NCBI GenBank assembly: GCA_046861645.1
Contig: JBHHUM010000116.1
Location: 1-5,453 of the forward strand
From: Fidelibacterota bacterium
GTDB taxonomy: Bacteria; Fidelibacterota; Marinisomatia; Marinisomatales; UBA2128
Length of the DNA stretch: 5,453 nucleotides
Direction of reading: 5' to 3'
Shown here: positions 126 to 4,810 of the stretch, in pieces
How the letters are laid out: each line of letters opens with the position of its first letter
Position numbering within the stretch: the stretch's first letter is position 1
Made by a program: the position numbers and the translations under genes
Notes under the pieces: model-generated
What the model was told of the DNA's origin: nothing
The model's input: only the letters and a program-made list of their open reading frames with translations
Databases searched by the model: none

Positions 126-953
126 TCATTTTAATAATATAACTTTTTCTGTTTGTCTCTGTGATGGAGATTCCAAAACAACAAAATAGATGCCTGAAGA
201 TAGCCCTTCAGCATTCCAAATTAACTGATGATATCCAGCAGGAACTTTTTCTCGCTTTCTAAGAATAGTTAATTGAGCACCCAATAAGTCAAAAATTGAC
301 AATTCAACCACCGCGTTTATGGGAAGATAAAAAGATATCCTGGTTTGGTGGTTGAATGGATTAGGATAAGGTGAATTTAGTATTATTCTTTCAGGAACAA
401 TTGACTGCTTCTCTTCAAAGTTGACTCCAACTTCTGGTATTTCTCCCATTAATTCTTCAATTATGGCTATCATCTCATTCTCATTGAATCCGTAAGCTGA
501 ATGTCTTACAGTCATATTATGATCTAAAATAATATTGTGAGGCACATACGGTACTCCAAATAAATCCACAAGTGAGTAATCAGTATCATCTAACAGTGGA
601 TACGAGGGTCCAAAAGTTTCTGCCCAGTCACTGCAGTAATAGGGATAACCCCAATCAAATCCAATGCCAATAATTTGCAGTCCTTGGTCTTTAAATGATT
701 GAAAAATGGTTTCCGTAAACGGAGCCTCCGCCTGGCAATTAGTTCACCAGGAAGCAAAGAAAGTCAACCAGACTACATGGTAATTCCCTCCATTGAAATC
801 CCCAAAATAATCATACAAACTTATATCACCTTCGCCATTAGCACATATTGGAGCTACAAAATCCTCAACAATTTCCCCCACTCCGTAAGGTTGGGCCTTG
901 AGGGAAATAAGAGAAGCTATCATAATACTCAGGGAGAATACTCTTTTCAGCAT
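126..953 (-). CDS. Putative selenoprotein: signal peptide + thioredoxin-fold redoxin (AhpC/TSA/TlpA-like, UxxC) + C-terminal T9SS type A sorting domain; ~275 aa, Sec at codon 70 (TGA 744-746)
   Basis: ORFs 744..977 and 126..569 are in the same frame (746-569=177 nt). Reading through TGA 744-746 gives ...VVWLTFFASW-U-TNCQAEAPFTETIFQSFKDQGLQIIGIGFDWGYPYYCSDWAETFGPSYPLLDDTDYSLVDLFGVPYVPHNIILDHNMTVRHSAYGFNENEMIAIIEELM..., an uninterrupted redoxin fold (FxAxW-x-xx-C, GxxIIGI strand, YPLLxD, cis-Pro-like VP). The signal peptide MLKRVFSLSIMIASLISLKA|Q starts at ATG 953 (alternative TTG at 977). The C-terminal PYPNPFN...IFDLLG...WNAEGLSSGIYFVVL...KVILLK matches the T9SS CTD pattern. Confidence 0.88.
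717..733 (-). promoter_or_regulatory. Candidate bacterial SECIS element
   Basis: The mRNA after UGA reads ACUAAUUGCC-AGGCGGA-GGC-UCCGUUU. AGGCGGA pairs with UCCGUUU (7 bp including two G-U pairs) around a GGC loop that begins with G, with 17 nt between the UGA and the loop. This fits the bacterial SECIS model (hairpin just 3' of UGA, G at the start of the apical loop). Folded by eye only. Confidence 0.6.
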
Positions 954-1007
954 ATCGAAGTCTTTATTCGATTTCAAAGTCTTACTTGGGACAATTTAGA
1001 TCCATTT

Positions 1008-1037
1008 AATGTAAATAGTTTGTCGCCCTGCTGACAA
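1008..1037 (-). promoter_or_regulatory. Possible sigma70-like promoter for the selenoprotein gene, overlapping an inverted repeat
   Basis: Minus strand: TTGTCA (1037-1032), 18-nt spacer, TACATT (1013-1008). The inverted repeat TTTGTC/GACAAA (1019-1024/1033-1038) overlaps the -35 box. These are weak matches in AT-rich DNA. Confidence 0.25.
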
Positions 1038-1061
1038 AAGGAGATATAGCTAATACTCATT

Positions 1062-2975
1062 TCAGAAACTACTGGTAAGAGTAATCGTCAGAGCATCTTC
1101 AATACCGGGTACGTAAACACAAACTCCACTATCACATTTAAGTCCACCCTGGAGAGATCCATAAAAAACACTAAAAATAGTTGCTGGTGTCAGATATATA
1201 GAACCTTGAATACCAAACCACTTATTGGTCATGTTTACACCTGAATTTCTCAGAATTTTCTCCAACCAACTGTCATTGTCGGGATTGGTATTTTGTGGAG
1301 TTCCTGCTTTAACAGCTGAAGCATAATCATAAACAAATCCAGCAGTATATTTTGAGGGTTTGCTAAAAGTTAAAGCCATATAACGATAATAATAAGGAAC
1401 AGATAAAGTTTCATCAGTAGTAATACTGTCAATTTCTCCGGAAGATAAATTTCTATATACCAGATAATTTCTATCCTGATAATCTTCCCACTGATGTTCC
1501 CAGTATAGTGTCATACCCCATCCGGAAGGGAGGTTAAAAGAAAGTTGAGTAGGTAGTGTAAATAATTTTCTTTTTTTCCAATCCAATTGTTCCAGAGTAT
1601 GATCTTCCCAATAGGATAGTTCACGTATACTTTCTTCGTACTTCTCTACCATATCACTGGAGTTAGCAAGCATGACTCTAAGGTCAAGGTTAAGTGGTGA
1701 GTAGTGGTAATTTATTTCACCATATAATTCCATGAATGGGTAGAAACCTTCATCATCAGAAAACCAAAATAACGACTTGGTTTCGATTTTATCCCACCCG
1801 TCAAAACCGTCGATATAACGGATATCCCGAAAACCGGTATGCCGACTGCTTTGAGCGTAGTTGAATGTTAGAAAAAGATTTTCAGACACGTTCAGATTAA
1901 ATTCAACCTGAATACCTACTTCATCTCCGAAATCCATAACGTGTGGAGTTCTACCCAAAAGTGTTGAGCTATGTTCTTTGAATGCAGTTGGACCATTCAT
2001 GGTGGGAGTTAACCGCCCTAATCGATAAGGTAAATGTGAACGGATATCAGGTTGGCTAATGTCAAAGTAGTAATTTTTATAGTCTAATGTTAATCCCCAA
2101 TTCCCTGAATAATATGATAAACTGGCATACCCTCCCCATCCTGAACTTTTACGATCATAGTAAAGCCACTCGAAAAGTGGAGTGGAATAAAGACTGTCAG
2201 CATCATCAATTTCCAGAGACCTTTTTAATACTTCGATATAGAAATCAACATCTGCTCCAAAGTATTCGATAAACAAGCCGGGTGAAAACGTACGAGTATG
2301 TATTGACATAGAATCAATCGTTGTAACAGTACCGTCCAAACTTTGCATCTTCCCAAACCAGGGATTAGTCGCATCGATATCTACACCATAAAAACCTGCT
2401 GAAAGACTGGGTAAGATATCATTAACCGTTAACAAAAGGACATTTACCATAGAATTTTCAGAAAAATCTCTAATTCTGGGATCCACACCTGGTCCTTGAG
2501 GAAGATGTCTCCCTCCAGTCGTTTTTCCACTAATGATATCAAAAGTCAGTTTATTCTTAGGTTGAGCCGTGAGCCAAATACCTCGTAAAGTTGAATCCCA
2601 GTCTATACCTTGATTCTCCCACATGTTTAAAGCCAGCCCCCGGCCAATCAGTCCGTAGAGATCACCAGCATTTACTGACAAATAATCACTCTCCCAAGTT
2701 AACCGCAACTTGCGGAGACCCAGATGATCCGGTCCGATCTGAGGCGGAGAGCTGAACTCAAAGTTCGACCAAAGCGTGAAGTTACTGTACCCAGCTGTTA
2801 CATCGAGCAAATGCTCACGATAGACGTATGACCCCCGGATCGTGTCACCTATTTCAATTGGCGGCTGAAGCCCACTGCCGTATTGAGCGGTTAGTCCGGC
2901 TGAGAAGTAAGCTCCCTGTCCATAGATCAAAGAAATAAAAATAAGAATTGGGGTAAGTCGTTTTATGGGAAGCAC
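1062..2975 (-). CDS. DUF6029-like outer-membrane beta-barrel protein with C-terminal CxxGxC motif
   Basis: 637-aa ORF with GTG start and signal peptide (MLPIKRLTPILIFISLIYG|Q). It has many amphipathic aromatic-rich beta-strands, the motifs AGDLYGLIGRGLAL...DSTLRG, LDYKNY and DEVGIQVE, and the C-terminus FYGSLQGGLKCDSGVCVYVPG...LTLTSSF-type ending in Phe (BAM signal). These resemble DUF6029 as I recall it; the family was assigned from memory, not by a search. Confidence 0.75.
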   Translation of the reverse strand: MLPIKRLTPILIFISLIYGQGAYFSAGLTAQYGSGLQPPIEIGDTIRGSYVYREHLLDVTAGYSNFTLWSNFEFSSPPQIGPDHLGLRKLRLTWESDYLSVNAGDLYGLIGRGLALNMWENQGIDWDSTLRGIWLTAQPKNKLTFDIISGKTTGGRHLPQGPGVDPRIRDFSENSMVNVLLLTVNDILPSLSAGFYGVDIDATNPWFGKMQSLDGTVTTIDSMSIHTRTFSPGLFIEYFGADVDFYIEVLKRSLEIDDADSLYSTPLFEWLYYDRKSSGWGGYASLSYYSGNWGLTLDYKNYYFDISQPDIRSHLPYRLGRLTPTMNGPTAFKEHSSTLLGRTPHVMDFGDEVGIQVEFNLNVSENLFLTFNYAQSSRHTGFRDIRYIDGFDGWDKIETKSLFWFSDDEGFYPFMELYGEINYHYSPLNLDLRVMLANSSDMVEKYEESIRELSYWEDHTLEQLDWKKRKLFTLPTQLSFNLPSGWGMTLYWEHQWEDYQDRNYLVYRNLSSGEIDSITTDETLSVPYYYRYMALTFSKPSKYTAGFVYDYASAVKAGTPQNTNPDNDSWLEKILRNSGVNMTNKWFGIQGSIYLTPATIFSVFYGSLQGGLKCDSGVCVYVPGIEDALTITLTSSF

Positions 2976-2990
2976 AATTAGGTTGAATAT

Positions 2991-3488
2991 TTACTGCGAT
3001 CCCTCTTGGGGAGACAGGATTGACAGTATCTCAGTTTCGAGGATTTTCTCATCTCCCGGCACATATCCTGAATGGCGATAGACAATATTTCCAGCGCCAT
3101 CTACCAGCAACGTGAAAGGCATCGTTGCACCGTTAAGCCGGCGATAGCTTTCCTGACTTGGATCGAGAGCCACTGTAAATCCATATCCTTTGGATCGAAT
3201 GTAGCTTCGGACTTTGGATCGACTGCGTTCAGTGTCAAGATTAATACCCAAAACTGTGAATCCCTGATCGCTGTATTTTTTCTGAAGGTCGTCAAGGTGC
3301 CTCATGGCTTTAATACACGGTGCACACCAGAGTGCCCAGAAATCAATCAATACTGGCCCAGACTTAATTATTTCCTGAACTGTGGTTTCAGTACCGTCAG
3401 TCAGTTTTAGATTTATTGCAGGAATCTGATCCGTTTGTGCTATCAGAAAATTTGATATCAGGCTGGCAAGTACAATCAGTCTAATCAA
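2991..3488 (-). CDS. TlpA-family thiol-disulfide oxidoreductase (exported, CxxC)
   Basis: 165 aa with signal peptide MIRLIVLASLISNFLIA|Q. It contains GPVLIDFWALWCAPC (W-C-A-P-C at 3315-3329), GFTVLGINLD, VALDP and MPFTLLVDGAGNIVYRHSGY, the hallmarks of TlpA/ResA/AhpC-TSA proteins. The TTG start overlaps the upstream TGA stop (TTGA, 3485-3488). Confidence 0.9.
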   Translation of the reverse strand: MIRLIVLASLISNFLIAQTDQIPAINLKLTDGTETTVQEIIKSGPVLIDFWALWCAPCIKAMRHLDDLQKKYSDQGFTVLGINLDTERSRSKVRSYIRSKGYGFTVALDPSQESYRRLNGATMPFTLLVDGAGNIVYRHSGYVPGDEKILETEILSILSPQEGSQ

Positions 3489-4810
3489 AGTAATTTCCCT
3501 AAGAAGCTCTCCAATTCAGATTCCGGAATAAATTCTATTAACACTTTTGTATAGTCAACTGCCTCATGTCTGGAGAGTGAGATCATGTATTCTGCATTGA
3601 TTTCTACGGTTTCCATTGTCACCTGAAGAGAGTTTCCACTGGCAGTGAAAGCTATTAGCGGAGAGAATTGATGTTCTGTCAGGAAGCGGACATTTGAGGA
3701 GGTTCTTCGATACCACGACGGTTCTGAAGTCTCCAGAATAATTGTCCGCGCACGACCCTCCTTATCCATCAACTGAATAACCGGAACAATCCGGAAATCT
3801 CCCCGGCTGATACGCTCGATCAAGGCGTGAGGTATACGCATCTCCCTCCGGGAAAATTGAAGCGAAATGAGAGACCCATCCTGGCGCATTGCCGAATACG
3901 GAAGGGATGACAGCATATCCTTGATGACGTTTTCACGAAGTGAATATTTCACGGACAAAGCAAACAGTACGGTCCCATCGTTTTCGCTGGGAACATGTAG
4001 AGACGGCCGGCTAATATCTACAATATAAGGATTGCTGGAGACGGTATTGATAATTTCTTCCAGCATAACAGCGTCTTTTGTAGGAACATCTTCGACTATT
4101 CCACCCGGTGAGAAGGAAAACTCCCTGCTGAAGGTACTCCCTTCAGAAACGGTCGGATCTAACTCATCCCTGCTGCCGATATAGAGGTCCATCACCTTCT
4201 CCAAATCTTCCACTGCTGTCTCAAGAGAGAAATTTAATTCCTTGGCTTGCTGACGATATTCAGGAATGGGAGCTTTGGCATCAGGCGACTTGAGAATACC
4301 CCGGGCATCCGGTTGAGGTATTTCACCCTCGAGAGCTATTTTCATTCGGAGGACGAGATCTTCGCCCAGTTTAGAGACCTGGTTCAGACTTCCTCTGGTC
4401 ACAAAACTTCCCAGCTCCACCCAGTTAGCGATATTAATTAATTGAATATTTACTGTCAGTTGATCCAATTCCCGAGTGAAGCTGCCCATGACAAGAATAC
4501 TCCGGGTACCCGACGGCTGACTCAGCAGCAACGAGCGATCCTGAAGTATCCGCTCCAGAGCTACCCGGTCATGCACACGAACGCCATCCACATCCTGAAA
4601 TCCGGTTGAAACCATATCCACCAGTCCTCTGCTCAGCCACGATACAGTTTCATCATTTCTAATGTTATCGAAATCCAGGAGATAGAGTTTCAGCCGCTTG
4701 GCGCCGTACAGGTCTGCAGCTCCAACAGTTGCAATGAGGGCTATCAGGAGATAAATACGCACTGTTTGTGGAATTCGCATGAAGCAGAATGTATCAGTGC
4801 GACGGCTCAT
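3485..4810 (-). CDS. Exported hypothetical protein with N-terminal TolB-N/CsgG/FlgO-like domain and unrecognised C-terminal region
   Basis: 441-aa ORF (alternative ATG at 4780, MRIPQ...) with a hydrophobic signal segment IYLLIALIATVGAA. The segment LLDFDNIRNDETVSWLSRGLVDMVSTGF...VRVHDRVALERILQ...ILVMGSFTRELDQLTVNIQLINIAN matches the TolB-N/CsgG-like alpha/beta pattern. Confidence 0.7.
   Translation of the reverse strand: MSRRTDTFCFMRIPQTVRIYLLIALIATVGAADLYGAKRLKLYLLDFDNIRNDETVSWLSRGLVDMVSTGFQDVDGVRVHDRVALERILQDRSLLLSQPSGTRSILVMGSFTRELDQLTVNIQLINIANWVELGSFVTRGSLNQVSKLGEDLVLRMKIALEGEIPQPDARGILKSPDAKAPIPEYRQQAKELNFSLETAVEDLEKVMDLYIGSRDELDPTVSEGSTFSREFSFSPGGIVEDVPTKDAVMLEEIINTVSSNPYIVDISRPSLHVPSENDGTVLFALSVKYSLRENVIKDMLSSLPYSAMRQDGSLISLQFSRREMRIPHALIERISRGDFRIVPVIQLMDKEGRARTIILETSEPSWYRRTSSNVRFLTEHQFSPLIAFTASGNSLQVTMETVEINAEYMISLSRHEAVDYTKVLIEFIPESELESFLGKLL

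Follow-up and report, generated by a model that had tools for sequence, protein, structure and literature searches.

The present study deals with a stretch of 5,453 nucleotides (nt) from a bacterium of the Fidelibacterota, the phylum also known as Marinimicrobia or SAR406. This stretch, hereafter the window, is an entire contig (JBHHUM010000116.1 of GCA_046861645.1, here C143) of a 2.51-Mb assembly, which consists of 184 contigs and is estimated to be 94% complete. On its minus strand, positions 126-953 very probably constitute one intact selenoprotein gene, which was mis-split by open reading frame (ORF) calling. UGA codon 70 would be decoded as selenocysteine (Sec) by SelB and tRNA-Sec, directed by a Sec insertion sequence (SECIS) hairpin, which starts a few nucleotides past the UGA and is written into the codons of a conserved C-x-x-E-A-P stretch. 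[quoted passage not shown] It would cross the inner membrane via the Sec translocon and the outer membrane via the T9SS, to remain on the cell surface or be released, and would act outside the cell as a selenol:disulfide oxidoreductase, with Sec70 as the nucleophile towards the disulfide of a substrate (or some other oxidised species of sulfur, or a peroxide) and Cys73 as the residue that resolves the Se-S bond formed. If this holds, a selenoenzyme is located outside the outer membrane and tied to a conserved cluster with TlpA and an outer-membrane barrel, which raises the question of what role a surface selenol plays and what recharges it.

The in-frame TGA and its hairpin

In the ORF listing the gene appears as a 77-aa ORF (744-977) and a 147-aa ORF (126-569). 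The first-pass annotation had taken these for the two ends of one frame, and reading the frame bore this out: the TGA at 744-746 is the sole internal stop between 126 and 953, it lies between FFASW and TNC at codon 70 counted from the likely start codon ATG 951-953, and the 58 codons between it and the GTG at 567-569 are free of stops. The annotation had further placed the TGA opposite the first Cys of a neighbouring TlpA, in agreement with a BLASTP alignment of FFASW[U]TNC with FWALWCAPC of the TlpA-like protein encoded at 2991-3488 (E 3e-7). The gene and its parts, all on the minus strand, are:

126-953, minus: whole predicted selenoprotein gene, one 275-codon frame plus terminal TGA at 126-128
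894-953, minus: probable signal peptide for the Sec pathway at residues 1-20 (MLKRVFSLSIMIASLISLKA, followed by QPYG), judged by eye
843-845, minus: Cys37, proposed disulfide partner of Cys107, invariant in 29/29 aligned sequences
744-746, minus: in-frame TGA, putative selenocysteine codon 70, aligned with the Cys of Cys-form homologs
735-746, minus: redox motif U70-T-N-C73, preceded by W69, aligned with WCAPC of the adjoining TlpA
713-738, minus: SECIS-like stem-loop, from the RNAalifold consensus in Sec forms and covariation
633-635, minus: Cys107, proposed disulfide partner of Cys37, likewise invariant in 29/29
501-881, minus: thioredoxin-fold (AhpC/TSA; ResA/TlpA-like) domain, residues 25-151, from PF00578, profile and Foldseek matches
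138-368, minus: T9SS type A C-terminal sorting domain (CTD), residues 196-272, from PF18962, TIGR04183 and the structural model

Homologs were searched in 61 genomes of the same order, from which 30 loci were extracted. The full protein matched all 61 genomes, mostly through the CTD, and the search was therefore repeated with the thioredoxin domain alone, which matched 81 of 301 genomes sampled from the phylum (E <= 1e-25); among the 111 matches listed, a hand count gave 71 with one in-frame TGA, one with two, one with a TAG and 38 with none. The 30 loci showed W-TGA-x-x-C in 15 cases and W-C-x-x-C in seven, and had lost the motif in eight; Cys forms at the TGA column read WCVPC, WCIPC, WCTNC, WCSSC and WCTTC. 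Twenty further homologs, which were picked for their TGA and include another class and family f24, all had it in the same alignment column. The column was thus identical in 35/35 TGA-bearing homologs extracted, so that the position of the codon is not a matter of chance. Past the TGA, E76, G98, W101, C107, W110, P119, P138 and G155 were invariant in 29/29 aligned sequences, so that protein-level selection acts on the part after the codon. Homologs with TGA or Cys at this column and conservation on both flanks were what the first-pass annotation had anticipated, and the downstream decay that it had associated with a pseudogene was not seen in this 29-sequence alignment, on which a pseudogene was rejected. 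A full-length homolog in genome G003 is 64% identical.

In a broader search of genome contigs, which returned 52 loci, only L052 spans the whole protein; L099 matches residues 25-134 (E 2e-6), and the others are mainly matches to the T9SS tail. The best public database hits comprise two full-length Cys forms (P0002, P0004) and, as three of the five, 3' fragments (P0003, P0005, P0006), with the gene call of P0005 beginning at a GTG within the hairpin. Gene callers routinely split members of this family, and since no NCBIfam model reaches its cut-off either, the selenoproteome of the phylum is undercounted.

The hairpin has the core CGGA[GGC]UCCG and an additional lower stem. Its apical loop (724-726) starts 17 nt past the UGA, and it overlaps the codons of C73-Q-A-E-A-P-F-T. 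Of the initial 15 Sec forms, 14 have CGGAGGCUCCG in common; among these, the closing pair of G010 is a compensated U-A, and the one exception is G047 (L025), whose sequence differs. A consensus stem-loop was obtained by RNAalifold for the 15 Sec forms and no consensus structure for the seven Cys forms; the codons GAG-GCT-CCG are present in 14, 15 and 13 of the 15 Sec forms versus 2, 1 and 1 of the seven Cys forms. In the 15 sequences the paired fraction was 90%, as opposed to 31-49% with the partners slid. In all 35 Sec forms 84% of cells were paired (33-46% with partners slid), both sides change in 6 of 11 pairs (31 cells) and the covariation score was reached by 0/500 shuffles, counts which are inflated by the relatedness of the sequences and by the coding constraint on the same bases. 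In distant members the position is retained and the triloop likewise begins with G, but the stems are quite different, as in CGAGAUC[GUC]GAUCUCG, which is displaced by one codon, and in CUGA[GUC]UCAG; the apical loops read GGC, GGU, GAU or GUC. The bSECISearch criteria of Zhang & Gladyshev (2005) reportedly call for a stem-loop just downstream of the UGA with a G in the apical loop; here a G-containing loop was found 17 nt after the UGA, together with compensatory changes. This covarying hairpin, which the first-pass annotation had not considered, adds independent comparative support for a selenoprotein.

The genome was also checked for selA, selB, selD and tRNA-Sec, on which the earlier proposal had been made to depend, and all four are present above curated cut-offs. 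With 63.9 bits the tRNA-Sec lies above its gathering score of 47, and its anticodon is TCA according to ARAGORN; selA reaches 531 bits, selB, 48 nt downstream of it, 395 bits, and selD (C34:25008-25934) 390 bits, the latter with an in-frame TGA of its own in GSGUACK. TGA is moreover the terminal stop of three of the five window genes, namely those of the selenoprotein, the DUF6029 protein and a 441-aa protein; TGA is therefore not reassigned and the code is standard, and a global reassignment was rejected on these grounds. Assembly error, another possibility raised at the first pass, was rejected on the TGA column in the homologs and on the contigs of four DNA runs labelled as hydrothermal vent metagenome: these vary only at 296, 297, 310, 408 and 915 and show no variant at 744-746, a confirmation that is not independent because the runs represent one sample and are possibly the source of the assembly.

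Against this background it is very hard to maintain that the gene does not encode a selenoprotein, in which case the TGA would be a genuine stop, with two genes or with a pseudogene, or an error of sequencing, or would be read as Trp, Gly or Cys in a changed code. Standard ORF calling does split the gene, the single-sequence fold is not significant, Sec decoding is predicted from sequence and the search of sequencing runs listed no RNA run. Against this stand the single TGA column with conserved flanks in every TGA-bearing homolog extracted, the unvaried contigs of the four runs, the hairpin restricted to the TGA forms, the use of TGA as a stop in the window and the complete Sec machinery.

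Several points nevertheless weigh against a surface-exposed selenoprotein, among them the inflated covariation counts and the single sample behind the four runs. Insertion of selenium at codon 70 is argued for by sequence comparison. The 71 nt after the UGA, folded alone, reach -12.5 kcal/mol (z 0.08), no stabler than shuffles, and their minimum free energy structure is a different, non-conserved hairpin; a search of positions 600-800 in Rfam (E <= 10) yielded no match. The hairpin of the window itself contains one mismatch and several G-U pairs, so that its support comes from the comparative data. Every specific NCBIfam model remains below its curated cut-off for the protein, as with the ResA subfamily (49.1 versus 170 bits) and DsbE (26.2 versus 123 bits), and the NCBIfam TlpA model is not listed among its matches. 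The signal peptide is probable, judged by eye and from an N-terminal helix in the structural model. Finally, a location at the surface would leave the source of reducing power unexplained.

Fold, family and probable chemistry

The protein matches PF00578 (AhpC/TSA in Pfam; E 6.9e-13, 49.1 bits versus a cut-off of 26) and also PF08534. Its AlphaFold model (mean pLDDT 88.3) displays an N-terminal helix, a thioredoxin domain and a beta-sandwich CTD, with a low-confidence stretch that includes residues 176-184. The best domain-sized Foldseek matches are ResA structures (TM 0.83-0.87 relative to the target, rmsd about 2 A), and model and matches together show a thioredoxin fold with the ResA-type insertion. 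After ResA, the structure and profile matches continue with DipZ-C, DsbE, StoA-type and Etrx proteins; the PDB profile matches to DipZ-C and ResA have E values of 4e-15 to 8e-15. Proteins of the ResA/TlpA type are characterised by W-C-x-x-C, a Glu three residues on and a cis-Pro loop. Correspondingly, W69-[U/C]70-x-x-C73, E76 and P138 are conserved, E76 and P138 without exception in the 29-sequence alignment.

With ResA, TlpA, DsbE (CcmG), StoA and the C-terminal domain of DipZ the window protein shares the fold, the position of W-C-x-x-C, the Glu and the cis-Pro. It differs from them by Sec at the position of the N-terminal Cys, by a further invariant pair, C37/C107, and by a T9SS sorting tail where they have a membrane anchor, and it falls far below the cut-offs of the ResA, DsbE and TlpA models. 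On the basis of these comparisons it is placed as a distant branch of the TlpA/ResA-like oxidoreductases (cd02966), not as an equivalog. Both C37 and C107 are present without exception, the eight motif-lost sequences included, and we infer that they form a structural disulfide.

The first-pass annotation had regarded Sec70 as the active residue of a UxxC protein of the thioredoxin/AhpC-TSA type; the selenoprotein assignment stood, whereas the fold proved to be ResA/TlpA-like and not that of a peroxiredoxin proper. In peroxiredoxins proper the peroxidatic Cys or Sec lies in the context P-x-x-x-T/S-x-x-C. FFASWUTNC is unlike this motif, a small gene on contig C71 of the same genome has TPGU instead, and membership of the peroxiredoxins proper was rejected. 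A genuine selenoprotein working as a thiol/selenol peroxidase, which detoxifies H2O2 or organic peroxides at the cell surface, would still agree with AhpC/TSA as best Pfam match, with 'Prx-like' as the published class name, with the lower-ranked Foldseek matches to Bcp1, LsfA and an alkyl hydroperoxide reductase and with the TxxU selenoprotein of Prx/BCP type on C71, which indicates that Sec peroxide chemistry is used in the organism. This is judged improbable, as W-U-x-x-C followed by E-x-P and a cis-Pro is in the style of ResA/TlpA and not of T/S-x-x-C, and the top structure and sequence matches are ResA, DipZ-C, DsbE and StoA. A selenol:disulfide oxidoreductase is therefore preferred.

Selenoproteins of the UxxC Prx-like/TlpA-like kind have been catalogued from ocean metagenomes since 2008, and in the portions of the literature covered here the T9SS tail and the conserved cluster are unreported. 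The selenoproteome of the Global Ocean Sampling (GOS) contains 'Prx-like 1' (pfam00578, UxxC, 225 sequences) and 'Prx-like 3' (pfam08534, UxxC), and the term 'signal peptide' has no occurrence in the searched text of that paper (PMC2398784). Table 2 there defines the former class by pfam00578 and UxxC; the window protein has a PF00578 match and UTNC, and by domain and motif only it is assigned to 'Prx-like 1'. Both have Sec in first position, are of marine origin, possess numerous Cys homologs and are predictions, but the passages on 'Prx-like 1' that were available mention neither a T9SS sorting domain nor a gene cluster. Excerpts of a 2026 review list as predicted UxxC selenoproteins a Prx-like thiol:disulfide oxidoreductase (PF00578), a protein resembling thiol-disulfide isomerases (cd02966) and Redoxin (PF08534) (PMC13188914). 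The NCBIfam families NF041054 ('ResA-like WAxxUGC motif-containing protein') and NF045500 ('Hypothetical protein GOS_C') are likewise thioredoxin-fold selenoproteins of environmental bacteria; membership was rejected for both, the former scoring 42.2 bits versus a cut-off of 300 and the latter giving no hit at E <= 0.01. No description of a T9SS-sorted selenoprotein and no account of selenoproteins of Fidelibacterota were found in the literature searched, to which the supplementary files of the GOS study and the reviews did not belong. Three SAR406 single-cell genomes are apparently listed with selD but no known selenium trait in the part of a 2016 survey consulted (PMC5029168).

Export and gene neighbourhood

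The N-terminus is modelled as a helix at residues 2-16, and homologs keep a hydrophobic N-terminus ending in A-Q/S-Q. At the other end, the CTD scores 38.6 bits with PF18962 (cut-off 27; E 1.4e-9) and 40.5 bits with TIGR04183 (cut-off 23), is modelled as a beta-sandwich with pLDDT >90 and is retained in all full-length homologs. Core parts of the T9SS are present in the genome: a PorU sortase was detected with 684.8 bits and SprA with 609.8 bits, and dozens of weaker matches, to CTD regions elsewhere in the genome, came up in the search for PorU. A precedent for T9SS cargo with a redox motif is HBP35 of Porphyromonas gingivalis, which according to its abstracts is hemin-binding and combines a thioredoxin-like motif with a CTD (PMC2907840, PMC3120885). 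The likeness to the window protein is drawn from these abstract descriptions, which mention no selenocysteine and concern a host-associated species of the Bacteroidota.

These data also bear on the possibility of a genuine selenoprotein that acts in the periplasm as a second TlpA/ResA-type reductant, in which case the CTD would bring about no display at the surface. Such a reductant, supplied by CcdA/DsbD, would for instance assist the maturation of cytochrome c or of copper proteins. All of the nearest relatives of known structure are reductants that work outside the cytoplasm and are supplied from the membrane, a periplasmic TlpA is encoded in the same cluster and the surface offers no obvious reductant, so that some weight is given to this alternative. 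We nonetheless consider it unlikely: the CTD exceeds the curated cut-offs for T9SS domains and no full-length homolog lacks it, a tandem paralog shows the layout of a surface protein (domain, long Asp-rich spacer and CTD), PorU and SprA are accompanied by dozens of CTD matches in the genome, and HBP35, as far as its abstract goes, provides a thioredoxin-motif T9SS cargo (PMC2907840). Secretion by the T9SS thus remains the preferred prediction.

The window has five genes, all encoded on the minus strand in the order GlnRS-type C-terminus, 441-aa protein, TlpA, DUF6029 protein and selenoprotein. The start of the TlpA gene overlaps the stop of the 441-aa gene by 4 nt, 15 nt separate TlpA from DUF6029 and 108 nt DUF6029 from the selenoprotein gene. 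A promoter/terminator scan of 1-1300 gave counts near shuffle expectation. The features besides the selenoprotein gene are:

3485-4810, minus: 441-aa protein of no known family, syntenic in 7/7 loci
2991-3488, minus: TlpA/ResA-like thiol:disulfide oxidoreductase, 165 aa, with WCAPC and a hydrophobic N-terminus, from Pfam/NCBIfam, syntenic
1062-2975, minus: DUF6029 protein, 637 aa, ending in ...TSSF, from PF19494 (E 2.7e-15), syntenic in relatives
1-24, minus: start of the next gene, MKKVLLGV..., cut by the contig end, N-terminus only

The DUF6029 protein is probably an outer-membrane beta-barrel; a similarity of Wzi-type outer-membrane barrels to DUF6029 by HHpred is reported in the part of the source consulted (PMC9603273). 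For the 441-aa protein no Pfam or NCBIfam hit was obtained, and a protein atlas gives weak leads only, to clusters of FlgO or CsgG/LpoB-like lipoprotein domains. In the same atlas, the clusters to which the neighbouring proteins belong consist mostly of Fidelibacterota. The gene starting at 24 is probably that of the UxxC paralog whose remainder ends contig C138. In G003 the selenoprotein gene and the long paralog stand in tandem; an exact overlap between the ends of the window contig and C138 was not found.

DUF6029 lies directly upstream of the homolog in 12/30 relative loci, examined with flanks of only 1.5 kb; L023 and L052 are probably one place. The order 441-aa protein, TlpA, DUF6029 is kept in 7/7 loci from families f1, f3, f7, f8 and f11, which comprise L052 and six of eight longer regions, the two cut by contig ends being omitted. 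L052, from one close relative, diverges very unevenly from 126-4810, with identities of 98% for TlpA, 97% for the 441-aa protein, 80% for DUF6029 and 63% for the selenoprotein, which suggests fast evolution or recombination at the presumably surface-exposed end of the cluster.

It may be speculated that the four-gene cluster represents an envelope-spanning redox module, in which periplasmic TlpA feeds the T9SS-sorted Sec-ResA; the FlgO/CsgG-like 441-aa protein would be the remaining part, and the DUF6029 barrel would either hold the selenoenzyme at the surface or pass reducing equivalents to it. We accord this only a slim chance. To our knowledge, a trans-outer-membrane thiol/selenol relay is not among the known systems. 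If true, a vent or deep-sea Fidelibacterota bacterium would reduce extracellular disulfides or polysulfides, for instance in opening disulfide-rich proteins for secreted proteases.

Sec/Cys exchange and further selenoprotein genes

A quick maximum-likelihood tree was calculated from 49 domains (35 Sec, six Cys and eight motif-lost forms), with the active-site columns kept in and L040 omitted for its TAG; its Sec/Cys proportions are biased because the 20 added rows were picked for their TGA. Sec forms stand on both sides of the deepest split, the Cys forms require four changes, at least two of them forced by well-supported branches, and the motif-lost forms make up one clade with 99% support. 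As the root of the tree is unknown, the direction of change between Sec and Cys is not shown. Within a single order, forms with Sec, with Cys and without the motif occur together, and the presence of the SECIS hairpin follows that of Sec, which makes the family a clean natural series for studying Sec/Cys exchange.

The motif-lost clade consists of L032, L036, L043-L047 and L051, with sequences such as TSRRCQ and NFTSRTE at the site. All eight still have both C37 and C107, are alike in fold, end in a T9SS tail and are probably redox-dead surface proteins with another role. L132 (G254:C8, locus ~245-289) reads W-U-U-P-C with two adjacent TGAs, its sister L131 W-U-G-P-C; this reflects either two genuine Sec residues in a row or a GGA turned into TGA by a change or an error. 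L040 (G013:C18:28072-28851) is a Cys form whose conserved PYSC-x-x-W stretch contains an in-frame TAG, likely a pseudogene or a sequencing error.

With SelD included, the genome contains at least five predicted selenoprotein genes. A second UxxC ResA-like selenoprotein gene, with U-P-S-C and 56% identity in the domain, is located at C138:4216-5754 on the minus strand; its predicted product of 512+ aa consists of the domain, followed by Asp-rich repeats of a calcium-binding type (thrombospondin-type-3-like) and a T9SS CTD. A third ResA-like domain with W-U-P-V-C was detected at C173:23-310 (minus strand), at the C-terminal end of a frame of >550 aa, which is cut by the contig end and whose N-terminal part appears repeat- or beta-propeller-like by eye. 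The small BCP/Prx-type gene at C71:19846-20160 (plus strand), with its in-frame TGA in T-P-G-U (TxxU motif), is by its motif assigned to the classical peroxiredoxin-type selenoproteins. About 6.5 kb from selD, at C34:32445-32582 on the minus strand, lies a 65-codon copy of the 5' end of selD, including the TGA of GSGUACK, which looks like a partial duplication or gene remnant.

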